DNA of 64,000 bases. It comes from an uncultured Actinomycetes bacterium. Its GTDB lineage: Bacteria; Actinomycetota; Acidimicrobiia; Acidimicrobiales; AC-9. The notes under the pieces were generated by a model. That model saw only the letters and a program-made list of their open reading frames with translations, was not told the DNA's origin and did not search any database. Position 1 is the first letter of the stretch, and each line of letters begins with the position of its first letter. Both the position numbers and the translations under genes were made by a program. The stretch covers positions 66,766 through 130,765 of the forward strand of contig CAVQWQ010000015.1 in assembly GCA_963717645.1 (NCBI GenBank), read 5' to 3'. Positions 30,961 to 61,333 of this stretch are shown piece by piece.

Positions 30961-32910
30961 TTGAACACTCGAGCCGTCACCGAGAAGCAGTCCCGCGATG
31001 TCGCCGAGGCCGCCAGGCAGCAGGAGTGGAACCAGCCCAGCTTCGCCAAGGAGCTGTTCCTGGGCCGGTTCAAGCTGGAGATGGTTCACCCCCATCCGCG
31101 CCCGTCCGCCGAGGATCAGGTCAAGGGCGAGGCCTTCCTCGCCCGGCTGGAGGCCTTCCTCCGCGAGGAGGTCGACCCCGCGGTCATCGAGCGCGACGCC
31201 AAGATCCCCGAGAGCGTGATCAAGGGCCTGTGCGACCTGGGCGCCCTGGGCATGAAGATCGACGAGGAGTACGGCGGCCTGGGGCTCTCGAACGTCTACT
31301 ACAACCGCGCTCTGGCCATGGCGGTCACCTATCACTCGGCGATCAGCACGCTGCTCAGCGCCCACCAGTCGATCGGGGTGCCCCAGCCGCTCAAGCTGTT
31401 CGGCACCCCCGAGCAGAAGCGCAAGTACCTGCCCCGCGTGGCCCGCGACCAGATCAGCGCATTTCTGCTCACCGAGCCCGACGTGGGGAGCGATCCCGCC
31501 CGCATGCAGTGCAGCGCCGTCCCCTCCGAGGACGGCTCGACCTACCTCATCAACGGCCAGAAGCTGTGGACGACCAACGGCGTCATCGCCGATCTGCTGG
31601 TGGTGATGGCGACCGTCCCCCGCTCCGAGGGGCATCGCGGAGGCATCACCGCCTTCATCGTCGACGCCCACGCACCTGGGGTGAAGGTGCTGCACCGCAA
31701 CCAGTTCATGGGGCTCCGCGGCATCGAGAACGGGGTGACCCGCTTCGAGAACGTGCGCGTGCCGGTCGACGACGTCGTCGGCGGCGAGGGTCGGGGGCTG
31801 AAGGTCGCCCTGCAGACGCTCAACACCGGGCGCCTTTCGCTCCCCGCCACGTGCGCCGCCTCGTCGAAGCTATCCCTCAAGATCGTGCGGGAGTGGGCCA
31901 ACGAGCGCGTGCAGTGGGGTATGCCAATCGGCAAGCACGAGGCCGTGGCCGAGAAGATCGCGTTCATCGCCGGCGTGACCTTCGCCGAGGAGGCCGTGGT
32001 GGAGCTGTCGAGCCTGCTGGCTGACGCCGAGCAGCACGACATCCGCATCGAGGCCGCCCTGGCCAAGCTGTACTGCTCGGAGATGGCCTGGCAGGTCGCC
32101 GACGAGATGGTGCAGATCCGGGGAGGCCGGGGATTCGAGACGGCGGCGTCCCTCGAGGCCCGAGGGGAGAAGCCCGTCCCGGCCGAGCAGGTCCTCCGGG
32201 ACCTCCGAATCTGCCGGATCTTCGAGGGCTCCTCGGAGATCATGAAGCTCCTGATCGCCCGGGAGGCCGTCGACCAGCACCTCGCCGTGGCTGGCGCCAT
32301 CATCGACCCCGATGTCGACGCCCGCACCAAGGCCAGGACGGCGGCCAAGGCCGGCGCCTTCTACGGCAAGTGGCTGCCGCGGCTCGCCGTCGGGCAGGGC
32401 CAGTCTCCTCGCAGCTACGCGGAGTTCGGCGAGCTGGGGACCCACCTTCGCTTCGTCGAGCGCTCCAGCCGCAAGCTCGCCCGCTCGACCTTCTACGGGA
32501 TGTCCCGCTGGCAGGGCAAGCTCGAGCGAAAGCAGGGATTCCTCGGTCGGATCGTCGACATCGGGGCCGAGCTGTATGCCATGAGCGCGGCGTGTGTGCG
32601 CGCCCAGATGCTGACCGACGACGGCGAGGTGGGGGCCGACAGCGCCATCGAACTGGCCGACCTGTTCTGCAAGGGCGCCCGCCGCCGCGTCGACCAGCTC
32701 TTCCATGGGCTGTGGCACAACGATGACGCCGAGAACTACACCACCGCCCAGGCCGTGCTGGCCGGCCGCTACACCTGGGCCGAGGGGGGCATCATCGATC
32801 CGGCGGGCGAGGGCCCCATGCTCGGCACGGCCAGCGCACACGCCACCGTCGAGGCCAAGGTCGCCCCACCCGAGAGCTCCGAGAACGTGGCCGCCGGCCC
32901 CAGCCGTTGA
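30961..32910 (+). CDS. Acyl-CoA dehydrogenase (long FadE10-like)
   Basis: FLLTEPDVGSDP, NGQKLWTTNG, QIRGGRG, RIFEGSSEI; start uncertain, TTG 30961 chosen. Confidence 0.9.
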   Translation: MNTRAVTEKQSRDVAEAARQQEWNQPSFAKELFLGRFKLEMVHPHPRPSAEDQVKGEAFLARLEAFLREEVDPAVIERDAKIPESVIKGLCDLGALGMKIDEEYGGLGLSNVYYNRALAMAVTYHSAISTLLSAHQSIGVPQPLKLFGTPEQKRKYLPRVARDQISAFLLTEPDVGSDPARMQCSAVPSEDGSTYLINGQKLWTTNGVIADLLVVMATVPRSEGHRGGITAFIVDAHAPGVKVLHRNQFMGLRGIENGVTRFENVRVPVDDVVGGEGRGLKVALQTLNTGRLSLPATCAASSKLSLKIVREWANERVQWGMPIGKHEAVAEKIAFIAGVTFAEEAVVELSSLLADAEQHDIRIEAALAKLYCSEMAWQVADEMVQIRGGRGFETAASLEARGEKPVPAEQVLRDLRICRIFEGSSEIMKLLIAREAVDQHLAVAGAIIDPDVDARTKARTAAKAGAFYGKWLPRLAVGQGQSPRSYAEFGELGTHLRFVERSSRKLARSTFYGMSRWQGKLERKQGFLGRIVDIGAELYAMSAACVRAQMLTDDGEVGADSAIELADLFCKGARRRVDQLFHGLWHNDDAENYTTAQAVLAGRYTWAEGGIIDPAGEGPMLGTASAHATVEAKVAPPESSENVAAGPSR

Positions 32911-48792: not shown

Positions 48793-49146
48793 CTAGGAGC
48801 TGGTGGGCGCCGCGCAGCTGCTGGCGTAGGCGCAGTCGTTGAAGCCGTCGGCGTCGCTGTCGGGCGCCGAGGGGGTCGCCAGGGGGTTGCCGCTGGAGTC
48901 GATCAGCTGCAGCTCCTCCGACGCCTTGAGCCCGGCAGGGGCGTTGTTCGCCCTGGCCAGGTCGATGTTGACGTTCGAAAGGTCGGGCAGGGGCCCGACG
49001 CCGGTCCCCGAGGTGCCCACCACGACCGGCGTCTCCTCGATCCACTCGGCAGTGGCGTGCGTCGAGCTGTAGGGAGTGGTCATGGTGAAGGTCCGGCCTG
49101 AGGTGATGTTCTTCAGCGTGATCGTCCAGACGTTCGAGCCGGCCAT
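48793..49146 (-). pseudogene. 3' half of a G1 (eqolisin-type) glutamic peptidase gene, cut at the element junction
   Basis: WTITLKNITSG...TAEWIEETP matches the family's C-terminal catalytic-Glu motif. No signal peptide or N-terminal half; it ends 20 bp from the integrase ATG. Confidence 0.7.
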
Positions 49147-49165
49147 AGTGCGCTAGCATAGATGC

Positions 49166-50566
49166 ATGACCAAGCCCCGGAGCGCCTCCGTCTACTGCCG
49201 GATCTCCCGTGACCGCGACGGCGAGGGCCTCGGCGTGGCTCGCCAGGAGAAGGACGCCCAGGAGTGGGCCGCTCGCCACGGGTGGACCATCGCCGAGGTC
49301 TACGTCGACGACGACATCTCGGCCTACAACGGCAAGCACAGGCCCGCCTACCGTCAGCTGCTCAGCGACATCGCCGAGGGGCGGCGCGACGGCCTGATCG
49401 CCTGGCACCCCGACCGATTGACCCGCCGACCCACCGAGCTTGAGGAGTTGGTCGAGGTGGTGGAGGGAACCGGGGTGCCCATCGGCACCGTCACCGCCGG
49501 CGACATCGACCTGGCCACCCCCAGCGGCCGCATGACGGCCCGTATCCTCGGCTCGGTGGCCCGCCATGAGTCCGAGCACAAGGCCGAGCGCATCGCCCGC
49601 AAGCACCGCGAACTGGCCGAGGTCGGCAAGGTCTCCGGTGGCGGTCGCAGGGCCTTCGGCTACAAGGCGGGCGGGATGGAGATCGAGCCCGCCGAGGCCC
49701 GCCTCATCGAGGAGGCCGCCGAGCGGACGCTCGCCGGCGAGGCGCTCCGCTCGGTCGTGGCCGACTGGAACCGCCGAGGCGTCAAGACCGTGACCGGGGC
49801 CCAGTGGTCGGCCACAACCCTGCGGCGACTGCTGCGCTCGGGGCGCATCTCCGGTCAGCGCGAGCACCACGACCGCATCATGGGCACGGCGGCCTGGCCC
49901 GCCATCATCGACCCGGCCACTACGTGGCGCCTGCGGGCCGTGATCGACGACCCAGCCCGCTCAGGGCGTCACCGCGGGGAGAGCGACTACGTCCTCGCCG
50001 GGCTGATGCGCTGCGGTGCCTGTGGCACGACCCTCACTTCCCACCAAGCCTCGAGGAAGGGTCGGACCGTGCGCCGCTACCACTGCATGGCCGACCGCGG
50101 TGGGTGCAATGGCGTCGGCATCATCGCCGCCCCCGTCGAGGAGTTGGTCACCGAGGCGGTCCTCACCCGACTGGACAGCCCAGCCCTGCGTAAGGCCGTG
50201 GCTCGGCGCTCCAAGCCCCGCAACGGGGCCGAGAAGGCCCTACGGGCCCTGGAGGCCAAGGAGGCCGAGCTCGGCGAGATGTGGGCCGGCGGTGAGATCA
50301 CCCGCGCCGCCTGGTCGGCGGCCAGGGACCGGCTGGCCCGCGACATCGAAGCGGCCCGGTCGGCCACCAGCGGACAGGTCCGCGAGGAGACTGCCGCCTC
50401 CCTCATGGGCAAGGGCGCCGACCTCCGCAAGCGCTGGGATCGTCTCCCCACCGAGACGAAGCGGACCATCATTTCCACCGTGGTGGAAGCAGTCACCATC
50501 GCCCCCACCACAAAGGCGGTCAACCGCTTCGACGAGGGCCGGGTCAGCGTCCTCTGGAGGGCCTAG
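49166..50566 (+). CDS. Large serine recombinase (integrase)
   Basis: YCRIS catalytic Ser, YVDDDISA, RPAY, DRLTR, recombinase domain, Zn ribbon CGAC...C...C, coiled coil. Confidence 0.95.
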   Translation: MTKPRSASVYCRISRDRDGEGLGVARQEKDAQEWAARHGWTIAEVYVDDDISAYNGKHRPAYRQLLSDIAEGRRDGLIAWHPDRLTRRPTELEELVEVVEGTGVPIGTVTAGDIDLATPSGRMTARILGSVARHESEHKAERIARKHRELAEVGKVSGGGRRAFGYKAGGMEIEPAEARLIEEAAERTLAGEALRSVVADWNRRGVKTVTGAQWSATTLRRLLRSGRISGQREHHDRIMGTAAWPAIIDPATTWRLRAVIDDPARSGRHRGESDYVLAGLMRCGACGTTLTSHQASRKGRTVRRYHCMADRGGCNGVGIIAAPVEELVTEAVLTRLDSPALRKAVARRSKPRNGAEKALRALEAKEAELGEMWAGGEITRAAWSAARDRLARDIEAARSATSGQVREETAASLMGKGADLRKRWDRLPTETKRTIISTVVEAVTIAPTTKAVNRFDEGRVSVLWRA

Positions 50567-50861
50567 CCCGCTCCCGCCGGTACGCGTCCCGCTCACCCTC
50601 CGTCGTCCCGCCCCACACGCCGGCCAGGTTCTCGTCGGCCAGCGCGTAGTCGAGGCACTCCTCGCGTACCAGGCACGACTCGCAGACCCTCCGCAGGGCG
50701 CCGACGTCGTCGCCACGGTCGGGAACGAAGCGGAGGGACGGGTGCTCGCGGCAGAGAGCGTCACGCAACCACGCCGGCCGGCCAAGAAGCTGCTCCAGCG
50801 TCCGGGGCTCGGACGCCCACGGCGCCCGGCCAAAGACCGCGCCACCCACATCGAGGGCCAC
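50544..50861 (-). CDS. WhiB-family Fe-S transcription factor
   Basis: W..DALC...CESCLVREEC...GVWGG, four Cys. Confidence 0.9.
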   Translation of the reverse strand: MALDVGGAVFGRAPWASEPRTLEQLLGRPAWLRDALCREHPSLRFVPDRGDDVGALRRVCESCLVREECLDYALADENLAGVWGGTTEGERDAYRRERARPSRGR

Positions 50862-50964
50862 GGATGGTCGAGCCTAGAACCTGCGCTCGTGGTCGCATAG
50901 CCCCCTAACGACGAGGGTGCGACGGTTGTTCGCCCGTTGCCCGCTCGCCGGCGCCGCGCCACGC

Positions 50965-51363
50965 TCAGGAGCCGTCGCCGGACCTCTCGGCTCCTCGGAA
51001 CCAGCCAGCTACGTCGGCGAGCGCAAGCCGCCACGTCCGGGATTCGCCTCCTACCGTTTCACGGAGGTGAAGGAAGGCCCCTGACTCCTTAGGCCGAGGC
51101 TGGGTCACCTGTTCCTCTCGCCACTTGTCGAACTTCGCCCGTTGATCAGCCTTAGGCTGGCCATCGACCCCTGCCTCAAGGGCCTCGGACTTCTCTATGT
51201 TCCTGCTCGCAGGCTCGTTGACCCACGCCCGGCGACTGACCAGGCGCCCGCTCATTTCCCGACCACCCACCAAGACGACGACCGGCAGCTCGAACGGAGT
51301 CTCCTCCTTGTCGAGCTCCTCCACAAGCGATACCAGCTCGCTCAGCGCCAGATCGGCACTCAT
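50965..51363 (-). CDS. Hypothetical protein, GvpU-like
   Basis: VVVLVGGREMSGRLVS...FLHLRE...WRLALADVAGW pattern; ATGA overlap with the upstream ORF. Confidence 0.55.
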   Translation of the reverse strand: MSADLALSELVSLVEELDKEETPFELPVVVLVGGREMSGRLVSRRAWVNEPASRNIEKSEALEAGVDGQPKADQRAKFDKWREEQVTQPRPKESGAFLHLRETVGGESRTWRLALADVAGWFRGAERSGDGS

Positions 51364-51653
51364 CGACCCGGTGCCCATGTCTCGACGGGAGTCTTCCCGT
51401 TCCCGCTCACCGACGCGCCCGTCACGCTCCGCGGCAGGGGTACCGGCTGCACACCAGCCGTTGCGGCGGCCATCTTGGCGGTGCCGCACGCCTCGGCCAG
51501 CTGCGCGTACACCTCGAGCACGATGTTCGGGTTGGCGTCGCGCCACAGCCGCTCGAGCACTGCCGGTGTCATCGCCGCCAGATGGGCGATGGCGGCGTTC
51601 CGGCGTTCGACAGCTCGGCCCAATGAATCCGGCGGCTGGTCGGTGAGCGGCAC
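51360..51653 (-). CDS. Hypothetical protein
   Basis: 97-aa ORF with an ATGA overlap to the downstream gene. Confidence 0.45.
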   Translation of the reverse strand: MPLTDQPPDSLGRAVERRNAAIAHLAAMTPAVLERLWRDANPNIVLEVYAQLAEACGTAKMAAATAGVQPVPLPRSVTGASVSGNGKTPVETWAPGR

Positions 51654-51790
51654 TGGTGGACCAGCCTACGCCCCCGGCGGGCGTTCGACGGGGTACGTGG
51701 TGCCGGCCCTCCTGTCCCAGGGGCTCAGAGGGGCGCACACAGCACCGATCCGCCCCGGCAGGGAGCCGGCGGGAACTGCGCTCGGCAGAT

Positions 51791-52270
51791 TCATTCGTGA
51801 TCTTGGTGGGGCACATCGGCGTGGGTCGTACCACCGGAATCTCCGTGTTTGGTGGCGAACTTCCCATCGGTATGCGCGGCGTAGTCAGTGTGGGGGCCGG
51901 CTACGCCGCTACTCCCGTCAGCGTGTTGCACGTCCGCGTGGTCGGTGTGCGGCACAACCCGGATGTTGCTGTCGTGGTGGTCGGCGTGGCTATCGACGTG
52001 ACCCCCGTGGCTGTCGGAGTGGCTGTCGATGTGACCTCCGTGGCTGTCGCCGTGGGGCGAGTCGCTGTGAGCGGCGTCGAGGTGGTCGGTGTGGCTGCTC
52101 GCATCGCTATGGTCGCTGTGGGCGGTGTCCGTGTGGACGGCGCCGGCGTTGCCACCGCCGCAGGCGCCGGCGATCGCGGGCAGAGACACAGCGGCAGGCA
52201 GGGCCATACCGGCCCGTAACAGCTCGCGGCGGGAGAACTGGCGCTGGCGCTCTTGGCGTTCCTCGTCCAC
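51791..52270 (-). CDS. Tat-type lipoprotein with His-X-Asp repeats (copy 1)
   Basis: AGGGAGG RBS and GTG 52270; FSRRELL twin-Arg, AGAC lipobox, 20 HxD triads. Confidence 0.8.
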   Translation of the reverse strand: MDEERQERQRQFSRRELLRAGMALPAAVSLPAIAGACGGGNAGAVHTDTAHSDHSDASSHTDHLDAAHSDSPHGDSHGGHIDSHSDSHGGHVDSHADHHDSNIRVVPHTDHADVQHADGSSGVAGPHTDYAAHTDGKFATKHGDSGGTTHADVPHQDHE

Positions 52271-52538
52271 AACCGCCGCCTCCCTTTGACTTTGAGACGA
52301 GGGCAGCGTACGCCCGGCGGCCGGCGTAAGCAGGAACTTGCCGCCGCCTTGTCGGGGGTTTGGCTCTTCTGCGCGTAACCCGATCCGCCGTCCGCCGGTC
52401 ATGACGGGATCGAACGTCGCAGGGGCATTCAATCTGCTCTTTGCAGCCAAGCAAGGAGGGACTGGCGTGCCAGGAGTCTCGACCACACCGGAGAACACCG
52501 TGGCCTTCCCGGCGCACCCCCACTTCGACCACATCGAT

Positions 52539-52790
52539 CTGGCTCACTGGCCATGACGCGAGAGGACGCCATGCGGCTGCTCGGCGACCTAGGGGAGGTG
52601 CAGGGCCGTCTTGACCGGCTCTCTGACGGCCTCCGGGCCTTGCTTGCCGACGACGAGGCCTAGCCCAAGCGCGGCTCCGCTCTTCGCCCGAGCGGAACCC
52701 CCCAACGCCGGACGCCCGGCTGCAATGGCGGGACAGGCTCGAGGCGTCCTTTCGCAAGTGTGCGCCTCCGGTCGCCACTTGTCGATCCCC
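52539..52790 (+). repeat. Repeat A, copy 1 (contains ORF 52553-52663, MTREDAMRLLGDLGEVQGRLDRLSDGLRALLADDEA)
   Basis: Aligns by eye with 53639-53896 and 55428-55558. Confidence 0.85.
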
Positions 52791-52927
52791 TGGGTGAGGC
52801 GGGCCAGCTCACAACTGAGGGCCCTTTCGGCAGCGGGTCAAAAGAGCGATCTGACCTCCCGCGAGCGGGTAGTGCAGGGACCTCGGGGCGACGGCGAGTA
52901 GCCCCCGCGTTGAGATAACTCAGGTCT

Positions 52928-53428
52928 CTAGCCAGACACGTTGACGTTTCCTTGGACGTTTGTGACGGTGAGATGGAAGGTGCGGGTTTGGCCTTGGGCT
53001 GTGGCCACGCAGTCGAAGGTCTCACCGGGCGACTTGAGAATGATGTTCTGGCTCCCGCAGTTCACATTGGCATCCACCTGAAGCTGCGCGCTGATTTGTT
53101 GCTTGAGACGGCTCGCAGCGGTCGATGCGACGATTACGGCCTTCGTTGGCTGGGCCTCGAACTGTGAACCTGAGGTGAAGACCACATTGAAAGGGACCTC
53201 TTGTCCACCGACGTTCGCCTGGCATTGGAACGTGGCCCCCGCCTTAGCTTGAGCGCCGGAGGGACATGTGACCTTGACGTCGTTGGTGTTCAAGGTCGTC
53301 TTGATCTTGGCCGTCACCTGGTTCTGGACTTGGCTGCTGGGGCTGCCGCCGCCGCCACAGGCGTCCAGGGCTATGACCAAGCCAAGCGGTGCAATCCCGA
53401 AGAGCCAGCGCCGGGATATCAGAGCCAT
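52928..53428 (-). CDS. DUF4333-like lipoprotein (two Cys-paired beta repeats)
   Basis: SRRWLF signal, LDAC lipobox, VTCP...GATFQC and VNCG...GETFDC repeats. Confidence 0.75.
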   Translation of the reverse strand: MALISRRWLFGIAPLGLVIALDACGGGGSPSSQVQNQVTAKIKTTLNTNDVKVTCPSGAQAKAGATFQCQANVGGQEVPFNVVFTSGSQFEAQPTKAVIVASTAASRLKQQISAQLQVDANVNCGSQNIILKSPGETFDCVATAQGQTRTFHLTVTNVQGNVNVSG

Positions 53429-53484
53429 CACACGTTCCCCCCCAAGTAGTCCTTCGGCTGAGCCGTGACAGGCTAGCGAGCTAG

Positions 53485-53763
53485 ATGGGGCCCTGTCGGG
53501 CGGGGCAGCAGAGCCAGGCGGATGACTTGCACCCGCCGCCCCACCCACGGCATCGAGCCCTGCACACCAGTCGCCTTCGGCACGTTCTAAACACAGCGTC
53601 CTCGGAACAGCTGCGTCGGTCCATCGCCATGCTCCAGCCTGGCTCACTGGCGATGAAGCGAGAAGACGCGATGCGACTGCTCAGTGAGTTGGGCGAGGTC
53701 CGCGGGCGCCTCGACCAGCTGCGCCACGGGCTCCTGGCCCTGCTCGGCGAGGAGGATCGCTAG
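53485..53763 (+). CDS. Small helical hypothetical protein, most complete copy of the repeat-A peptide; start uncertain
   Basis: EQLRRSIAMLQPGSLAMKREDAMRLLSELGEVRGRLDQLRHGL; reading frame and stop position conserved across three copies. Confidence 0.6.
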   Translation: MGPCRAGQQSQADDLHPPPHPRHRALHTSRLRHVLNTASSEQLRRSIAMLQPGSLAMKREDAMRLLSELGEVRGRLDQLRHGLLALLGEEDR

Positions 53764-53896
53764 GACCTCAAGCGCGGCTCGCCCCGCCGAGAGCAGAGCC
53801 GCCCCAACACCGGACGCCAGGCCTGACCGGCCGGATCAAGGCGCCTGTGCGTCCGTACCGTCAGCGTGCGCCTCCGGTCGCTACCTGTCGATCCCC
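53639..53896 (+). repeat. Repeat A, copy 2
   Basis: Shares the CTGGCTCACTGGC start, the peptide frame, the hairpin and a 31-bp distal block (29/31 identical) with copy 1. Confidence 0.85.
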
Positions 53897-54185
53897 CGTC
53901 TCACCGCGATGCCTGGTGGGAACAGCCGTGGGGGATGCTTCCCCAATTGCCGCTAGGGGTCTCCCCGAGTAGGGTGACCTCTGGACGGGACCGACCAGCC
54001 GACTGTGGCTTGGTGAGCCGACCGATTGGCCTCCGCCCAGGGGTAGTCCGGCCCCGGTGAGGAGCGAGGTTGTGCCCGGGTAGGAGGCCCCCCGAGAAAA
54101 GGGGTCGACACCGGGCCCCGAGCGGCGGACACGGGACAGTTTGGCTCGGGGGGATCACGGCCCTCCCCGAGCTGCCTGGCTAGTT

Positions 54186-54400
54186 CGCTCAAAAGGAGGG
54201 CGGCTCAACGGGGTGGGATCGGCGGAACGAATCACCCCGGAGCCGCCCACCTCAACGGGCGCTCGGGAGGGCCGACCGATGGTGGGGGCGAGCCAGGCCA
54301 CCGACCGGCCCACCTGAGCGTCACCTCAGCGCGCTCAGGAGGGCGGCTCACGGGCAGGGGCACCACACCCTGTCCGGAGCCACCCACCTCAGCGGGCGGA
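54186..54400. repeat. Repeat B, copies 1 and 2 (hairpins)
   Basis: CGCTCA(AAA)GGAGGGCGGCTC-variable inner stem-GAGCCRCCCACCTCARCGGGCG. Confidence 0.8.
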
Positions 54401-54585
54401 CTGACATGGCCACTCAGTGACCCAGAGGCGGCCACCGTCACCCGCGGTGCGGCGGGTAACGGCAACCAAGAAGAGAAACCCAATCACGCGCACCTCCTCT
54501 CATAGAAAGTGTCCCTCCAGCGTGGGCTCAGAGCACGGGCCGAACGGCACTTAGCGCGGGCCGCGAGCCCGAGCGAGCATGACGA

Positions 54586-54768
54586 CTAACCACCAAGGGC
54601 TCGGCGGGCGAGGATCGCCCTGCGCTGTCCAGCCGTCTTGCCGCCCCATATCCCCAGCCGCTCACGGCGCTGCAGAGCGTGGTCGAGACACTGCTGGCGC
54701 ACCAAGCACTGTTCGCACACCGCCCCGAAGCGGCCATTGCGGCGGATGCCTGCTTGCCGTAGCGTCAA
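54586..54768 (-). pseudogene. WhiB-family gene, probably N-terminally truncated
   Basis: CEQCLVRQQC...GIWGG present, but the first Cys and the upstream Trp are absent. Confidence 0.65.
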
Positions 54769-54818
54769 TGGTCGTCGCCGCTGTGGCGGGGCTTGCGTGA
54801 AGCGAGAAGGGGGTCGCC

Positions 54819-55133
54819 ATGCAGTTCGTAATCGTGGCAGAGCACTCGCCAGAGTCCTGCCCTACGTCCAACAAGCAGATCCGGGACCTTATGCGTGAAG
54901 GCGCAAAGCAAATCCCCGATCTGGCGAAGAAGCTGGGCGTTGAGATCATCACCCTCCGGGTCCTCGGCCCCGATCACCAGTTCATCGGAGTAGTCGAGGC
55001 GGCCGACATCGAAGCTGTCAGGGACTTTCTCATGCAGAGTCGGCTCGTGCAGTTCAACACCACGACGGTGCGGGCCACCTGGAGCATGGAAGAGGCGCTC
55101 GAGAAGGTGGAGGCGCTACCAACGCTCCGATAG
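54819..55133 (+). CDS. GYD/DUF3303-like dimeric alpha+beta barrel protein
   Basis: AAGGGGG RBS; HSPESCP N-terminus, H.FIGVVEA, MEEAL. Confidence 0.65.
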   Translation: MQFVIVAEHSPESCPTSNKQIRDLMREGAKQIPDLAKKLGVEIITLRVLGPDHQFIGVVEAADIEAVRDFLMQSRLVQFNTTTVRATWSMEEALEKVEALPTLR

Positions 55134-55196
55134 CTGCCCGGGGTGGACCCGACCGAGCCCGTGGAACGACTACCGCCGCCGTCCCGCTGCCGAGGC

Positions 55197-55318
55197 GACC
55201 CGGCCCATCCGGGGCGTCAGCTGACTCGCTCAGGAGGGCGGCTCCAACGGGACCAAGGGGTATCACCAGCTCGCGCTGGAGCCCCCACCTCAACAGGCGG
55301 ACAATCGGTCGTGGCCAC
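55197..55318. repeat. Repeat B, copy 3
   Basis: GACCCGGCCCA...CGCTCAGGAGGGCGGCTC...GAGCCCCCACCTCAACAGGCGG aligns with 54303-54412. Confidence 0.8.
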
Positions 55319-55364
55319 CGCCCGCCTCATCGGAGGCTCATCCTCTTGACACTGCCAGTGTGAT

Positions 55365-55402
55365 CCGCGAGGGTCCGGTGGACCACGGGTCGAAGGGCCC
55401 CT
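55365..55402. repeat. Repeat C, copy 1
   Basis: CCGCGAGGGTCCGGTGGACCACGGGTCGAAGGGCCCCT. Confidence 0.85.
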
Positions 55403-55427
55403 CAGTAGCCAGGCCGAGGGTGGAAAA

Positions 55428-55558
55428 GAGTTAGGCGAGGTGCAGGGCCGCCTTGACCGGCTCTGTGACGGCCTCCGGGCGCTGTTTGCCGACGAGCAGG
55501 TCTAGCCCAAGTGCGGCTCCGGCCGCATTAAACGGAGCCGCCCCAGCACCGGATGCCA
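55428..55558 (+). repeat. Repeat A, copy 3 (5'-truncated, ELGEVQGRLDRLCDGLRALFADEQV*)
   Basis: Close match to the 3' half of copy 1, including the hairpin. Confidence 0.85.
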
Positions 55559-55685
55559 GAACTGGCGCTGACGAGCCTCCCCTTCTTCATCAGTTGACGA
55601 CGCGGCGGTCGGCTCGTCTAGGTCGTTACGTCCAACTGGAGTCTTCTCTCGGAGGGTGTCACCGTCCGGGCTGAGGAACGGCCGG

Positions 55686-56246
55686 TCAGTGGTCACCGTG
55701 CGCGTCGTCACCGTGGGGCGTGTCGAGGTGGGAATCGCTGTGGCTATCACCGTGGTCGGAGTGGGGACGGGAGGGCTGGTCAGTGTGGGTGGACTTCCCG
55801 GCATCAAGGTGTGAGGAGTCGCCGTGAGGGCTGCTGGCTCTGTCGCTGTGCATGGGAATAAGCGCTTCGTTGGTGTCGTAGTGCGGCGTGTCCACGTGTG
55901 GGGTGTCCGTATGGTGCGCGTCCGAATGTGCAGAGTCGCCGTGGCCGGTGTCCGCGTGGTTCGAGTCCGTGTGGATCGAATCACCGTGAGCGGTGTCATT
56001 GTGGCTCGAGTCCTGATGATCGGCGTGGTCGGCGTGGCTGCCTGAGTCCGTGTGATCGGCGTGGCCGGCGGCGCTGCTGGTGCCGCTGCCGCAGGCTGCG
56101 GCGACCGCCGGTATCGACAGCACGACCGGTACAGCCATGCCGGCTCGCAGGATCTCCCGCCGGGAGAACTGCCGCTGGCGAGTGGCGCGCTCCTCGTCGT
56201 CTGAGGACCGCCGGCCGGGCTCGCCCCGGTCGTCAGGATGATCCAT
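55686..56246 (-). CDS. Tat-type lipoprotein with His-X-Asp repeats (copy 2)
   Basis: FSRREIL twin-Arg, AAAC lipobox, 24 HxD triads; GAGG RBS. Confidence 0.82.
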   Translation of the reverse strand: MDHPDDRGEPGRRSSDDEERATRQRQFSRREILRAGMAVPVVLSIPAVAAACGSGTSSAAGHADHTDSGSHADHADHQDSSHNDTAHGDSIHTDSNHADTGHGDSAHSDAHHTDTPHVDTPHYDTNEALIPMHSDRASSPHGDSSHLDAGKSTHTDQPSRPHSDHGDSHSDSHLDTPHGDDAHGDH

Positions 56247-56354
56247 CAGCCCGCCTCACCCGTAAAGCCGCCGTTTCAGCCACGCCGCTGAGCTGGCCCG
56301 ATGGTAAGCAACGGGGCCGTCAGGCGCAATCGTTTCGCTGATCGGAAGCCATGG

Positions 56355-56391
56355 CCGCGAGGGTCCGGTGGACCAGGGGTCGAAGGCCCCT
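56355..56391. repeat. Repeat C, copy 2
   Basis: CCGCGAGGGTCCGGTGGACCAGGGGTCGAAGGCCCCT, one substitution and one indel relative to copy 1. Confidence 0.85.
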
Positions 56392-56528
56392 GGAGCCATG
56401 GGTCATATCGGGCTCTCGGTCGGGAGGGCGGCATAAGGTCCCCATTTCGCCCGCCACGGGGTGACCTTTGGCCTCTTCTACTGGTGCCACCTTTCTGCCA
56501 CCAATGAAGGTGTCAGGAGGAGGCAGCG

Positions 56529-56900
56529 ATGACCACGGGGATCGCAGGAATGGCGGCAGCGCTTCTGCCTCTCGAAGGCGACATGAGCTGGCGAGGAGAC
56601 GGCGCCTGTCGTTGGTACCCGACGGATTGGTGGTTGCCCGTGAGCAAGCAGGCGAGCGCCGTGGCTCTCTATATCTGCGAGACGTGCCCGGTCCTGCTTG
56701 AGTGCATGGACTACGGCCTAGCCCACCCGTCTCTCCACGGCGTGTGGGGAGGGCTCACTGAGTACCAGCGCCACCGGATCCGGGGTGGGAAGGACCGCAA
56801 CCACCACGAGGAAGCACGGCGGAAGATCGAGCTACGAACCGAACGAAGGCGGCGGACCCGGCGAGCGACCACGAGCACGAGTGGAAGTGGGAGGGCGTAG
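56529..56900 (+). CDS. WhiB-family Fe-S transcription factor
   Basis: WRGDGAC...CETCPVLLEC...GVWGGLTE, Arg-rich tail; GGAGG RBS. Confidence 0.9.
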   Translation: MTTGIAGMAAALLPLEGDMSWRGDGACRWYPTDWWLPVSKQASAVALYICETCPVLLECMDYGLAHPSLHGVWGGLTEYQRHRIRGGKDRNHHEEARRKIELRTERRRRTRRATTSTSGSGRA

Positions 56901-56978
56901 GCTTGCCACAACGAAAGGTGCCCCGGGCGAGGCCACAACCTCCCCGGGGCTGGCCAATCCCTGCAAGGAGGGATCGAC

Positions 56979-57278
56979 GTGGAGAGATTAGAGGACCGCC
57001 CGACCGCCGAACTGGTGGAACTCGTGAGGGAGTTCCTGTCCGACGCCCACGTACTCGTGGACGAGCCTGGGGCGAAGGGTCGCGGAACCCACGACTGGCG
57101 CTGCCCGCCCTCCGAAGCCAGAGAGGCGATGACAGTGGCGAACGTACCCCCTTGGGAGGCCGCTGAGCGCTACCTGCTCGAGTTGCTGGAGACGCCGGAC
57201 AGCCCTGACACGTCCAGTCTGAACGGTCGACAGGTGCCGCTTGAGCTTCGCCAACGCATCGTTGAACAAGCGAGATGA
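56979..57278 (+). CDS. Hypothetical protein
   Basis: AAGGAGGG RBS; ATGA-coupled to the next ORF. Confidence 0.55.
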   Translation: MERLEDRPTAELVELVREFLSDAHVLVDEPGAKGRGTHDWRCPPSEAREAMTVANVPPWEAAERYLLELLETPDSPDTSSLNGRQVPLELRQRIVEQAR

Positions 57279-57529
57279 TCGCCAGCATCGTGAGGAACCA
57301 CGACGAACTTCAACGGTTGGTCCTCGGGTGGGCAGACGATCCCTACGCCGACGGGGCCGCCCTGCAAGCTTGCGATGAGAGCGGGCTCACGGCGCTCTAC
57401 GACATCCGAACCTGGATCGCTGCCGCGACGTCCAGAGGGATAGACGTTCCCTCGCCCTCGGATCTCGCCGTTCTGCGAGCCGGTGTCTCTGGGTTTCTCA
57501 CCCCGGGTGAGCAGTCAAGCGATGAGTGA
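57275..57529 (+). CDS. Hypothetical protein
   Basis: ATGA overlap with the upstream ORF. Confidence 0.5.
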   Translation: MIASIVRNHDELQRLVLGWADDPYADGAALQACDESGLTALYDIRTWIAAATSRGIDVPSPSDLAVLRAGVSGFLTPGEQSSDE

Positions 57530-57599
57530 TGCAGAAGACCTCGAAGCCAGAAGATCCTTTCTCAACGAGGACTCATCAGCGAACACCGGAGTGAGGTGA

Positions 57600-58118
57600 A
57601 TGTCCAACCAAGACGACAATGAGAAGCCTCCTGCCGACGAGACGGTAAGACAACGGCGGGCGAGGGAACTTCAGACGGGCCAGCTCAGCCCGGAAACGGT
57701 CAAGGGCATCCAGGCACTTGTCGCCAGCCTCCGCGACCGGTCGACGGTTCTTGGGCAAGTCTTCGCCGACGCCGCCGAGACAAACAGGCAACAACTCGAG
57801 TGGCTGCTCAAGGTAAAGGAGGCCCAGGAACGGTCCGCCAGAGACTTGGGGCGCGGCATTCGGAGTGAGATTGAGACGAAGATAGAGCGGGCGGCACTCG
57901 AGGCCCAGGCTGTGCAGGCGGCGATAGCCAATACTGAACGCATGGGTGAGTTGAACGAGTTGACCAAGACCCAGAACGAGCTGACAGTCGATTTACTCGA
58001 TGCTTTCGGTGGCCAGTCGAGGACGGCTAAGACCGTAGGAGTCCTTTTGGTACTTGGAACGCTTGACAGCATCGTTATCGCCATCATCAGCCTGGTCGTG
58101 AGCCTCAGCCCCAAATGA
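57600..58118 (+). CDS. Coiled-coil protein with a C-terminal membrane anchor
   Basis: GAGGTGA RBS, helical Q/E/L-rich body, hydrophobic C-terminus, visibly more A/T-ending codons. Confidence 0.6.
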   Translation: MSNQDDNEKPPADETVRQRRARELQTGQLSPETVKGIQALVASLRDRSTVLGQVFADAAETNRQQLEWLLKVKEAQERSARDLGRGIRSEIETKIERAALEAQAVQAAIANTERMGELNELTKTQNELTVDLLDAFGGQSRTAKTVGVLLVLGTLDSIVIAIISLVVSLSPK

Positions 58119-58405
58119 CCCGGCCAGGTTGTGCCTTGTACTTCGCCGGCGTCATCCTTCTCGGCGCCATCATCACGTGGCCGGCGATCGTCATCCCCGC
58201 CCTGGTGCTCGTCGTCGCCACGGTGGTGGCGGTTAGACGGAAGTACGCGACGGTGTCGCATGTTGGCGTTCAGCACATGGAACACGACCGGCCCTTTAGC
58301 GAGCGAGGAGCCGAATGGCTCGAGGCCAAGACCCGTTGCGACTGGTGCGGGGCGCCGCCACAGGTCGGCCGCCACTGTCGGTGGTGTGGGACGGCGCTGG
58401 CGTAA
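58115..58405 (+). CDS. Small membrane protein with a C-terminal zinc ribbon
   Basis: Hydrophobic N-terminus; CDWC...CRWC; ATGA overlap. Confidence 0.6.
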   Translation: MTRPGCALYFAGVILLGAIITWPAIVIPALVLVVATVVAVRRKYATVSHVGVQHMEHDRPFSERGAEWLEAKTRCDWCGAPPQVGRHCRWCGTALA

Positions 58406-58733
58406 AGGATCGCCGCTGTCACACCCTCCGGTACCATCGAGATTGAGTAGGACGTCCTTAAAACCACATAGGCGTGTGGCCCCTCCTGAGACAGCGCCCC
58501 CGGTTCCATGACCGGGGCGCTGTCGCGTCAGGAGTAGCCCATACGCGTATGGGCACGTCCGCTATTTGGTCCTGCCTCGTCCTCTCGTCTTGCCACTCGC
58601 TGGCTTGGCACTGGCCCGCCTACCCGTGCCCGGCGACATGGACCCTAGGCTCCGAGCGCGCTGGGAGCCCGGCTTGAATGCATGCCTCGCCAATTGCGGC
58701 GGTGTCTTGCCGGTCTTCTTTGTCGCCATTAGA

Positions 58734-59126
58734 TCACCTGCCTCTGATGCTGCGGAGTTGCTCGACCATGGCGTCGATCCGCGCCTGCTCCGGCGATGGC
58801 TCGGGCTCGGTGGCGTTGGAGAGATTGACCTCCCTGGCGCGGTCAAGGGTAAAGAGGAACGGGTGCCGGTTGGTCCGTCTCCTCGGGTCCAGCCGCTCGA
58901 GCACGAACGCCTGATGGGCGGCCGCTGCACGCTCGCGCTCGCTCTGGAACTCGCCGTACTCAGCGCTGAGCCGGACGGTCGCGTCGGCCATCGCCTGCGC
59001 GTTGGCAACGACGCCGTCGACGGCCTCGGCCTCGGCCTCGGCCAGAGTTTCGATGACGGCTCGGTCATCGGCGTCGAGCATTGGTTCCCAGTTGCCACCG
59101 GGGTCAGGCATTCGCAGTTCGTACAT
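58734..59126 (-). CDS. Hypothetical protein
   Basis: GAAGGAG RBS; same strand as the terminase genes. Confidence 0.6.
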   Translation of the reverse strand: MYELRMPDPGGNWEPMLDADDRAVIETLAEAEAEAVDGVVANAQAMADATVRLSAEYGEFQSERERAAAAHQAFVLERLDPRRRTNRHPFLFTLDRAREVNLSNATEPEPSPEQARIDAMVEQLRSIRGR

Positions 59127-59140
59127 TGGTTGCTCCTTCC

Positions 59141-59608
59141 TCAGCCGTAGACGGCTGGGTCGAAATGTTCGCTGATGTCGTAGTGGGAGACCGTCAACAA
59201 GAACTGACCGCGGGCGTCCAACACACCACCCGTCCGGCCCTCGGCGACGGCCTCGTAGTGGGCGCGTTCGGCCAACACCTGCTCGCGGCTCTTCTTGGGG
59301 CGGGCAGCCTCGGCGGCTCTGGCCTCCTCACGCGCTCGACGACGAGACTCTGGGTCGCCGGGGCCAATCCAGGGTTCGGCTTTCTGCCAAAGCCGCTCGG
59401 CTCTGGCTTGGGCTACGGCTTCGGAGGGTGGACCGTCCAGAGTGCCCGGAGCGAGGTCGTACACCTCGACGGGGTCACCACGTCCAGGGCCTCGTTCATC
59501 ATCGCCGACGAGCGTGCTGCTACGGCAGGGGGAGACGACCGTCTGAATCGCTCTCCACGGTGGTGGTCCGATGCTCTCGGGCTTATCGGTAGTCCTCATG
59601 TTGTCCAT
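59141..59608 (-). CDS. Hypothetical protein
   Basis: GAGGAG RBS; co-oriented with the terminase genes. Confidence 0.6.
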   Translation of the reverse strand: MDNMRTTDKPESIGPPPWRAIQTVVSPCRSSTLVGDDERGPGRGDPVEVYDLAPGTLDGPPSEAVAQARAERLWQKAEPWIGPGDPESRRRAREEARAAEAARPKKSREQVLAERAHYEAVAEGRTGGVLDARGQFLLTVSHYDISEHFDPAVYG

Positions 59609-59777
59609 TCTCCTCTGTCAGGTTGGTGATAAGGGGACGTTCCGCCGGCGGGTAACACTTGGCTGCCGGCCGCAGCCCGAAGCTGCCGCGGCGGCGCCTG
59701 GTGTCGCGCACGGCCGCGTCCGGATGAAGAACGAACGTGGCGGCACGTTCCCCGCCGGCAAATCGTGACGGTGGACA

Positions 59778-60575
59778 TCAGTAGACACCGCCAGAGTCGG
59801 GATCAAAGGGCCAGCTCTTTCGGACTTTGCGAGGCACCATGTCCGGGCCGACGACGACCTTAAAGCCCTCGGGATGACCGGGCGGGCCGATGACGCGGTT
59901 GCCGAAGACGCCGGTGTGGAGACCGGGGCTCGGGTCGTCGCGGTACTCGTGCACGCCACCAGAGTGCTGGGCGGCGTGTTCGGGCGAGCCGGGGGCGTGG
60001 TACGGACCGAGCTTGACGTGCAGATAGACGCTGAGCATCAGCGCCACGACCATATCGTCGTGTTGCGTCCTGGCGTCATTGCTGCAGGTGGTACCTGTCG
60101 CAGTTGTGTCGTACGAGTAGCCCTTGAGCTCGTCGGTCAAGGTGGCGAGGTCCGCGAGTGCGGGCGCCGCGTGCAGCGTATGGTTCTGGAGCTCCACCGA
60201 CAGGCTGCCCACGAGGTCCTGCTTCGGCGCTGTCCAGCGGCCGTACCGGGTGGTGGCGTTGGACCCCGCGGTGATGGTGACGCCGATCGGGCTCGGCCTC
60301 AGCTTGCGGGTGGCCATCTCGACCACCGGCCCGCCCAAGCCTGTCGCGTCGATCGCGACCTGCACCCCGCCGTCGAGGTTGGGCTCGCCGTAGTGAGACC
60401 CGAGGCGGTCGATGATGCCCTGGAGGCGGTGGAGTTGTGCGTCGTAGGACTCACCCAGCGGGAAGCGCTGTGCCACACGGATGTCGAGTTGACCGCGCTG
60501 GCGGTCGATCACGATCGCGGCGCTCGGGTCATGGCTCTGCCCGACGTCCACACCACACAACCAGCGAGCGCTCAC
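59778..60575 (-). CDS. Terminase large subunit nuclease (RNase H-like) domain as a separate gene
   Basis: GVDVGQSHDPSA, IDATGLG, HDDMVVAL; GTGA overlap with the ATPase gene. Confidence 0.8.
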   Translation of the reverse strand: MSARWLCGVDVGQSHDPSAAIVIDRQRGQLDIRVAQRFPLGESYDAQLHRLQGIIDRLGSHYGEPNLDGGVQVAIDATGLGGPVVEMATRKLRPSPIGVTITAGSNATTRYGRWTAPKQDLVGSLSVELQNHTLHAAPALADLATLTDELKGYSYDTTATGTTCSNDARTQHDDMVVALMLSVYLHVKLGPYHAPGSPEHAAQHSGGVHEYRDDPSPGLHTGVFGNRVIGPPGHPEGFKVVVGPDMVPRKVRKSWPFDPDSGGVY

Positions 60576-61333
60576 AGCGGCGTTACCTCCGGGTCGAGGA
60601 TGGCGTCCACCAGTTCGGGCGGGAAGACGGCGCCCTCGGCGGCACCGAAGGTGACCTCGTACTCGGCGGCGAATCGCAGCGCCGGCATGGTGCGGCGGGC
60701 CTCCTCGATGCGCTCAGGCGTGATGCGGCCACACTCCGAGGCGGTGACCTTGATCTTCATGTAGGGCTCGGTGGACGACCACGTCAGCCAGAACCAGCCC
60801 CGCATGCCGTTGGGCGTCGACAACCCGATCAGTCGACCGCCCGTGGCTCCCAGCATCGGAAGGACGGCGTGGACGAGGGAGTCGGTGACGAATCCGGCCT
60901 CGTCGAGAATCACGAGGTGCGGGCTGTAGCCACGGATGGTCGTCTCGCTCGAGGGCAAGGAGAGGATGCGGCTGCCGTTCTGGAGCCTCAAGGACAGGAT
61001 GGACTCGCTGACGGGTCGCGTGCTGGCCACCTGTGGTTGGCTGGCCAGCGGCGTGAGCAGCTCGCGGACGCGGCCGAAGACCTCGCTCGACTGGCGCTGA
61101 CTCGGGCTGACCAGCAACGTCAACGACTTCTCGACGGTCAAGGCCTGGTCCAAGGACATGGCGGCCGCGACAGTCGACTTGCCCACCTGCCGGGCGCATC
61201 GCACCAGTGCTCGCGATGGGCGCTCGGTCAGTAGCCTCGCTTGCCACTCGTCGGGCTCGAGGCCGCTCGCCCTCATGATGTCGAGGGGGCTGGGCGGCGG
61301 GGCGAAGCGGCGGGCGAGGGAGGCGTCGGTCAT
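60572..61333 (-). CDS. Terminase large subunit ATPase domain as a separate gene
   Basis: PDEWQ, Walker A ARQVGKST, IRG, Walker B VILDEA, coupling motif STPNG, AEY. Confidence 0.88.
   Translation of the reverse strand: MTDASLARRFAPPPSPLDIMRASGLEPDEWQARLLTERPSRALVRCARQVGKSTVAAAMSLDQALTVEKSLTLLVSPSQRQSSEVFGRVRELLTPLASQPQVASTRPVSESILSLRLQNGSRILSLPSSETTIRGYSPHLVILDEAGFVTDSLVHAVLPMLGATGGRLIGLSTPNGMRGWFWLTWSSTEPYMKIKVTASECGRITPERIEEARRTMPALRFAAEYEVTFGAAEGAVFPPELVDAILDPEVTPL

Follow-up and report, generated by a model that had tools for sequence, protein, structure and literature searches.

Phage morons are accessory genes with their own promoter and terminator that lie between backbone genes. Putative mobile promoters have been defined as sequences that stand in front of non-homologous DNA and share 80% identity or more over 50 nt or more, and the survey of them by Matus-Garcia, Nijveen and van Passel was dominated by pairs (PMC3575422). 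REP, Correia and other small palindromic repeats are named in the same paper (PMC3575422). We analyzed a stretch of 64,000 nucleotides (the window) from an uncultured actinobacterium of the order Acidimicrobiales, in which an original prediction had described positions 52539-56391 as a chain of cargo units of about 1 kb, each bounded by its own direct repeat, and as a cassette-acquisition hotspot that was integron-like in outcome without the integron integrase IntI. We find three repeated modules, A, B and C, that recur across the islands of the same genome, and three cargo segments added to a backbone that exists elsewhere in this genome without them. The locus is read here, with moderate confidence, as a patchwork: paralogous islands that have moron-like promoter/hairpin modules in common would have recombined with one another.

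To describe the layout, the region 49000-60000 was compared with the window by blastn, and a repeat search was added. A1 (52539-52790) and A2 (53639-53896) are 73.6% identical over 261 nt (E 1.9e-32, offset 1100); A1 and A3 (52590-52679 and 55432-55521) are 88.9% identical over 90 nt (E 1.5e-27), and A2 and A3 71.9% over 135 nt. B2 (54305-54401) and B3 (55200-55302) share 75.2% over 105 nt (E 1.5e-8, offset 895), and a third B copy, B1 (54185-54260), stands in tandem with B2. The two C copies (55365-55400 and 56355-56390) are 94.4% identical over 36 nt (E 4.3e-9, offset 990). The layout of three repeat-bounded units of about 1 kb was reproduced by both methods. However, the repeats are not each unit's own, as had been proposed, since A, B and C all belong to dispersed multi-copy families.

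The genome to which the window belongs is metagenome-assembled (4.44 Mb in 39 contigs, 97% complete, contamination 7.63%); labels such as C1, C2, C9, C10, C18, C28, C29 and C31 denote its contigs where they carry coordinates or the word contig, and C1 and C2 are otherwise the two copies of module C. Searches of this genome gave 23 merged blastn places and 21 nhmmer hits for A (9 contigs), 38 and 38 for B (8 contigs), and 20 and 22 for C (8 contigs); a first search had given 24 matches for A and 32 for B. The copies cluster in island or prophage-like regions, and about ten island loci share modules. Of the 38 B copies, 20 are concentrated on contig C31 (106-206 kb) and six on contig C29 (310-337 kb). 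Modules are co-oriented inside each cluster: all 10 nhmmer matches of A, B and C in the window lie on the plus strand, and all 10 on contig C29 on the minus strand. Wherever B and C adjoin, C follows B by 28-45 nt in the same orientation.

A further comparison is with paralogous loci that lack the cargo. The locus C29:336285-334727 (minus strand) is collinear with positions 52542-56893 of the window but measures 1.56 kb instead of 4.35 kb; its order is A, a gap, B-B'-B, C and WhiB, and the three cargo segments are absent. The same backbone order without the three cargos was found at C18:210198-212402 and C31:181315-182151. Set against these cargo-free loci, the region amounts to the shared backbone with three insertions, beside each of which the adjoining module is duplicated. 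The first added segment (52791-53604) carries a DUF4333 gene and is flanked by a duplicate A of about 250 nt, the second (about 54402-55199) carries a WhiB pseudogene and a 104-aa gene next to some 100 nt of duplicated B' and B, and the third (55401-56354, 954 bp) contains A3, an HxD fragment and HxD2 and is flanked by a duplicate of the 36-nt C core. At five loci, the left homology runs up to 55400 and no further, the right one begins precisely at 56355, and in the other locus these two stretches share 35 nt. Two C-led units stand in series at C31:109936-107768, which makes chains of units general in these islands.

The repeats are thus backbone sequences, as had been proposed, and different cargo occupies the same boundaries within this genome. 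The 60 nt upstream of C fall into one cluster for 16 of 20 copies, and the 200 nt downstream form 14 clusters among 20 copies; the flanks upstream of B form 19 clusters among 31 full copies. The suggestion of a cassette-acquisition hotspot therefore stands insofar as cargo varies at backbone sequences, but site-specific capture of an integron kind is unsupported.

In the patchwork reading, A, B and C together would form moron-like units of promoter, gene and hairpin. Three extra segments would have been spliced into the backbone, each with a second partial copy of the neighboring module. Homologous exchange at a shared module, or Campbell-type insertion of excised circles there, would leave the flanking duplicates, and illegitimate joins would have truncated A1, A2, A3, C2 and the WhiB fragment; it is unlikely that a site-specific recombinase dedicated to cassettes took part. 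The non-equivalent breakpoints of A and the truncated WhiB, HxD and C2 pieces fit illegitimate or homologous joins rather than a single fixed crossover point. What was observed directly are the families of modules with their edges and the paralogous backbones free of cargo, whereas the roles of B and C and the route of recombination are inferred.

A1 (52541..52790, plus strand) is a 5'-truncated module with an open reading frame (ORF) remnant (52553-52663), a hairpin and a motif, D14 (52757-52790). A2 (53605..53897, plus strand) is also 5'-truncated, and its ORF remnant (53629-53763) is followed by a hairpin, by D14 and by the degenerate remains of a promoter; it has no promoter or start codon of its own and is shorter than the full-length copies elsewhere in the genome. 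A3 (55428..55559, plus strand), the most truncated copy, keeps the last 25 codons and the hairpin. Promoter and start codon are absent from all three copies, which have three different breakpoints. That A1 and A3 are 5'-truncated relative to A2 at different points had been noted from the sequence and was confirmed, with family homology starting at 53605 (A2), 52541 (A1) and 55428-55434 (A3). The arms of the hairpin after the A stop codon, read from the sequence, differ among A1, A2 and A3 but stay complementary. The conserved D14 motif follows this hairpin; at other loci it lies upstream of the next A promoter.

When its copies are aligned with their flanks, module A is the 3' part of a small gene for a 66-aa protein together with a hairpin. 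The copy at C9:150184-150384 (minus strand) reads as such a protein, and the other intact A genes are at C18:~210144 and C28:~143455. Upstream of full A copies we found TTGACC-N18-GAACAT and a GAAC-N4-GTTC box that overlaps the -10-like hexamer. The A transcript would be leaderless, because the GTG start lies only about 7 nt past that hexamer. The box is of a kind that we take to be LexA-binding. The same box type occurs upstream of recA (one box) and lexA (three boxes) of this genome, and of its 54 occurrences genome-wide three are on the intact A promoters (contigs C9, C18 and C28). These sequences suggest that intact A may be a damage-inducible small gene. Among database candidates for relatives of the A protein, 75 of 76 match at E<=1e-3 and many have 62-68 aa; none of the relatives has a Pfam domain, and their names are uninformative, mostly 'hypothetical protein'. 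The A gene on contig C9 is divergent from a WhiB operon.

Module B is a palindromic hairpin element of 75-90 nt with a sharp left edge (...CGCTC|AGGAGGGCGGCTC). B1 (54185..54260, plus strand; central type I) scored 79.3 bits with a covariance model and folds as DNA at -25.7 kcal/mol (z -3.9). B2 (54331..54397, plus strand; central type II; 70.8 bits, z -5.2) is the counterpart of the single B beside C in the C29 backbone. The two are joined by the B' linker (54261..54330, plus strand), a weaker B-like palindrome that joins tandem B copies and follows B at 7 of the 31 copies. B3 (55226..55298, plus strand; central type III; 53.5 bits, z -0.9) is degenerate and is preceded by the 3' half of a B' linker. 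The terminal inverted arms CGCTsAGGwGGGCGGCTC match at 16 of 18 positions; they read CGCTCAGGAGGGCGGCTC and the reverse complement of GAGCCGCCCACCTCAGCG, and B thus has terminal inverted repeats. The distal stem was out of register between subtypes in a MAFFT alignment, and per-copy folding was used instead of covariation counts. It gave a median z of -3.35 for the 31 full copies, with z<-3 in 20. Two of the center types lengthen the stem with differing sequences, GGGGTGG...CCACCCC and GGGCAGGG...CCCTGTCC, and the hairpin signal comes mainly from the conserved arms. B stands directly behind genes and may act as a terminator or insulator.

B continues in one of three ways: into a B-like linker and another B, into a GC hairpin and then C, or into a module of 400 nt present in four copies. 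This fourth repeated module is 86-90% identical among its copies (C30:80250-80650, C31:106591-107010, C14:173400-173873 and C31:173960-174417), always follows a B and has a small opposite-strand ORF. At C31:174421 and C31:182194, B begins about 29 nt past a WhiB stop codon. The covariance model gave 65 matches in the genome, both strands counted, on about 35 distinct places. Among 100 relatives, 12 had a match at E<=0.01. Good scores were obtained in three of the seven congeners (G005 68 bits, G006 50 and G002 31), with 2-4 matches on one or two places each, and B covariance matches were absent from the other four. The upstream flank of the G005 copy recurs at C31:189259 and C31:206268. From the congener matches and this shared flank, B is old in the genus and has expanded in the present genome. 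Directly upstream of B, on the other strand, a small conserved ORF encodes a hydrophobic peptide of some 24 aa at C31:189259, at C31:206268 and in congener G005 (locus L036 on its contig C6, 1420-1500).

C1 (55334..55428, plus strand) is a complete C module with TTGACA, the operator-like palindrome CACTGCCAGTG, the core at 55365-55400 and a 'Y-type' continuation. C2 (56355..56528, plus strand) has the core and a WhiB-type leader, the promoter-like 5' half being absent; its homology to five B-C-WhiB loci begins exactly at 56355. It is followed by WhiB3 (56529..56900, plus strand; Pfam Whib E 5.8e-15), which belongs to a group of near-identical WhiB units and has paralogs of 93% aa identity on contigs C31 (two) and C18. 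Of the C matches, 21 of 22 have in common ...CCTCyTGACACTGCCAGTGTGATCCGCGAG-GGTCCGGTGGACCAGGGTCGAAGG-sCCC and diverge afterwards; the core holds the perfect palindrome GGTCC-GGT-GGACC. The 5' part and core are 82-92% identical between loci over 64-70 nt. The continuations are the WhiB leader (six copies), the short 'Y' (about seven), 'W' (three) and 'Z' (two), and the remainder are unique. B-C-WhiB is the usual arrangement, and the distance from C to WhiB is about 140 nt in five of the six WhiB-class copies and 238 nt in the C29 copy. C contains TTGACA and GAGGGT separated by 17 nt, a promoter-like arrangement, and because of its position C would be a promoter for WhiB and other genes.

Several observations weigh against the patchwork reading. 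The left edge of B and the right edge of C, just after the core, each lie at one and the same nucleotide in many unrelated contexts. Random illegitimate joins do not predict such sharp edges, which a discrete mobile or site-specifically recombining unit fits better. All three units are built alike: the cargo stands between two copies of a backbone module, and the order of the backbone is kept. This is suggestive of a repeated, directed process. Between the C core and the end of WhiB, four loci share 91-100% DNA identity with flanks down to 0.3-0.7, which looks cassette-like, although gene conversion between paralogs would be expected to give such a pattern as well. Regarding the roles of the modules, a simple sigma-70 scan of 51500-57500 returned no sites and did not support a promoter role for C. 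B has no T-run, leaving a terminator role unproven, and its center alone is not significantly self-complementary (median z -0.08; z<-2 in 4 of 31 copies). A simple terminator scan of 51500-57500 gave no hit that coincides with B. Finally, every comparison was made inside one metagenome-assembled genome, and no close external relatives were found.

In another explanation, B alone, B-C or B-flanked segments are non-autonomous units of the miniature inverted-repeat transposable element (MITE) or 'mobile promoter' type, moved in trans by a transposase or recombinase with its gene elsewhere, with cargo carried along or captured. The inverted arms and the sharp left edge of B, its varied upstream contexts and its far greater abundance in this genome than in the three congeners with one or two places, four of the seven having none, are all in its favor, and C satisfies the operational definition of putative mobile promoters (PMC3575422). 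On the other hand, no target-site duplication was evident in five plus-strand B-C units compared on both flanks. No partner transposase was identified, and a Y1/HUH gene (RAYT or IS200-type) is absent, with no matches to PF01797 in the 97%-complete genome. The B copies are limited to islands and are not genome-wide, and no empty orthologous site was found in the congeners, where the B locus of contig C30 gave repeat-level matches only. We consider this explanation unlikely.

Two further explanations involve site-specific recombination. In one, B and the C core would be the recombination sites of a cassette shuffling without integron integrase in actinobacterial islands. Each unit, a gene with a module copy, would leave as a circle and could enter again wherever else that module occurs, through an element-encoded serine recombinase or through RecA acting on structured repeats; if true, the outcome would be single-gene units arrayed in one orientation and equipped with standardized promoter and hairpin parts. 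We regard this as improbable. In the other, which we judge more doubtful still, an integron-like platform would hold single-gene cassettes that recombine site-specifically at folded sites (B or the C core) through a recombinase other than IntI. For such a platform speak the form of B, an imperfect palindrome with conserved arms and a variable center between single genes in co-oriented arrays, the palindromic C core with its 36-nt direct duplication around the 954-bp segment, and the several serine recombinase genes of the genome.

However, nothing was found that indicates site-specific capture as in integrons, and the integron analogy of the original prediction is apt only in part. Its statement that IntI is absent holds: a search of the whole genome with TIGR02249 gave a best score of 66.9 bits against a cut-off of 265 and nothing above it, and the only recombinase that Pfam identified in the window is a serine recombinase. 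The outer core sites of attC follow the consensus RYYYAAC ... GTTRRRY. In an alignment of 24 B copies, no paired attC core sites were found: the 5' arm has GCTCAAC without the complementary GTTGAGC in the 3' arm, which reads GGAGCCGCCCACCTCA. The cargo occurs in either orientation (minus strand: the DUF4333 gene, the WhiB fragment, HxD2; plus strand: the 104-aa gene, WhiB3), and the A boundaries vary between copies, A being cut at three points. Integron cassettes are promoterless, co-oriented and read from one platform promoter; here, the promoter-like C recurs before individual units. Excision was checked with contigs of four public runs, which are short. The nine joints listed all correspond to paralogous loci, without a precise excision among them; joints skipping 900-2800 nt carry the letters of paralogous B-C loci of this genome and therefore do not stem from excision. 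A contig in which 55400 is fused to 56391, or an excision equivalent to that, was not seen, short contigs being a weak test. Direct repeats around 1-kb units are by themselves no indication of an integron-like system.

An assembly artifact, a chimeric join of paralogous islands at shared repeats, is hardly credible: the genome is a 39-contig bin with the contamination given above, and public short contigs break at its multi-copy repeats, but public-run contigs, from runs that may include the source sample and are not independent, cross several junctions with 0-1 differences (A1 and D14 to the DUF4333 gene at 52598-53068; A2 at its left edge at 53448-53781; the WhiB-fragment junction at 54591-54791; the 104-aa gene to B3 at 54842-55238). 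Among the contigs of four soil-metagenome runs, none covers the entire chain.

The cargo of the region was judged by homology and Pfam, as a codon-usage gene caller trained on host genes missed many island genes. Cargo 1 (52928..53428, minus strand) is a DUF4333 lipoprotein-like gene, and this earlier label was borne out by Pfam (DUF4333, E 2.9e-16); it is single-copy, tblastn finding only itself. Cargo 2 is a 104-aa gene (54819..55133, plus strand), also single-copy with tblastn finding only itself. The GYD-like label given to it is weak (Pfam GYD E 0.065; 13.7 bits against a cut-off of 31.4). Beside it lies a 5'-truncated WhiB pseudogene (54506..54768, minus strand; ORF 54586-54768), correctly recognized earlier as a fragment, in which only positions 28-65 of the 65 of the Pfam Whib profile are matched; its stretch 54506-54702 is 94% identical to C31:108986-108795. 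Cargo 3 is HxD2 (55686..56246, minus strand; 186 aa). Between it and A3, a fragment of an HxD N-terminal (signal) region (55558..55619, minus strand; D5 repeat family) is fused to the A3 end and is 80.6% identical to C29:339096-339035. HxD1 (51791..52273, minus strand) is a secreted protein rich in His and Asp, and its RR signal is followed by a Cys; Pfam gives it a faint TAT_signal match (E 0.0093). HxD1 shares 46% aa identity with HxD2 and has paralogs on contigs C29, C10 and C8. No Pfam family was found for HxD1 or HxD2.

Positions 55469-55865 are 91.5% identical to C29:340911-340512, where the joint of the A3 end, the HxD N-terminal fragment and the 3' part of HxD2 is also found. Since the joint is present on contig C29 too, this A3-HxD mosaic is older than the duplication that placed it in both elements.

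The region lies inside an integrative element. At its left end is a large serine recombinase (integrase; 49166..50566, plus strand; Pfam Resolvase E 4.9e-30, Recombinase 2.4e-10, Zn_ribbon_recom 2.4e-9), and further right is a terminase large subunit in two ORFs (59778..61333, minus strand; Terminase_6N E 3.3e-8, Terminase_6C E 0.0035), namely the N-terminal ATPase (60572-61333) and the C-terminal nuclease (59778-60575), which overlap by 4 nt. On the basis of these Pfam assignments, the region is placed in the accessory arm of a serine-integrase, terminase-bearing integrative element that is prophage-like or satellite-like. Related integrase/terminase elements were located on contigs C1 and C29. 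The C1 terminase halves match separately (31581-32318 and 32428-32889) and are called as two ORFs, and contig C29 gave a match to the N-terminal half only. A 117-aa ORF at 48793-49166 stops 20 nt ahead of the serine integrase start; its sole DNA paralog, of 106 nt, is on contig C35, and it may be a host gene or an attachment region interrupted by the element. The G+C content of the window is about 65-74%.

The backbone gene WhiB1 (50544..50861, minus strand; Pfam Whib E 5.2e-16) overlaps the integrase by 23 nt at the 3' ends (50544-50566), and its paralogs adjoin o51360-like genes on contigs C9, C2 and C37. Used alone as a tblastn query, WhiB1 found 27 places in the genome at E<=1e-5. The WhiB repertoire is unusually large, and much of it is island-borne, with several copies truncated. 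On contig C31, an island-like stretch of roughly 100 kb (about 97-224 kb) has tyrosine integrase genes on both sides (96.7, 213.9 and 223.4 kb) and contains about ten WhiB-like matches, a CarD paralog, a second signal peptidase, and ISL3 and IS3 fragments.

Searches outside the genome gave little. Rfam returned no matches for 49000-60000 at E<=1, and PHROGs returned no families for ten region proteins, the full A protein included. Distant blastn of 52500-57000 found no match among phage records. Exact patterns of B and the C core had no matches in viral, genome or metagenome contigs, where the genome's own records may be missing. In 40 relatives, the B3-C1 DNA gave a single weak 34-nt match to the core, in G016, and the C2-WhiB3 DNA matched in none of the seven congeners.

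If the patchwork reading is correct, one soil actinobacterium has standardized the non-coding parts of its accessory genes, with one promoter-like leader and one hairpin element reused 20-38 times around small genes that are unrelated to one another, such as those for WhiB regulators, for secreted proteins of the His-rich and lipoprotein-like kinds and for a signal peptidase. These common parts would offer a foothold for recombination that swaps genes between islands and prophage-like elements in one cell. The locus would then be a testable case of reused promoters and would illustrate how integrative elements build up their variable arms.

Compared with known systems, the locus resembles integron cassette arrays in having palindromic elements with conserved ends and variable centers between single small genes, co-oriented, and cargo that varies between similar loci. 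Unlike such arrays, the region has no IntI, B has no paired attC core sites, the cargo lies on both strands, each unit has a promoter-like module, and the families extend over about ten loci instead of one array. As with morons, the element bears an integrase and a terminase, and small accessory genes (secreted proteins, WhiB) stand between promoter-like and hairpin elements; here, however, these elements, whose activities are putative, are standardized families of 20-38 copies around unrelated genes.

C resembles the putative mobile promoters in being at least 50 nt long, about 80-92% identical and followed by non-homologous sequence, its promoter activity being likewise putative, but its family is much larger than pairs and is physically coupled to the palindromic B. 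B in turn is like REP/REPIN, Correia elements and MITEs, a short multi-copy palindrome with inverted terminal arms, intergenic and expanded in one genome. It differs from them in the absence of a RAYT-type gene, its confinement to islands and its fixed order with B' and C, and no target duplication was seen in the five plus-strand B-C units. Satellites similar to phage-inducible chromosomal islands share the serine integrase, an own terminase and related copies in the same genome, but the present finding concerns an accessory arm and not a satellite life cycle. Moron-like accessory units, reused promoters and palindromic repeats are all known kinds; what is unusual here is the degree to which they are standardized in one genome.

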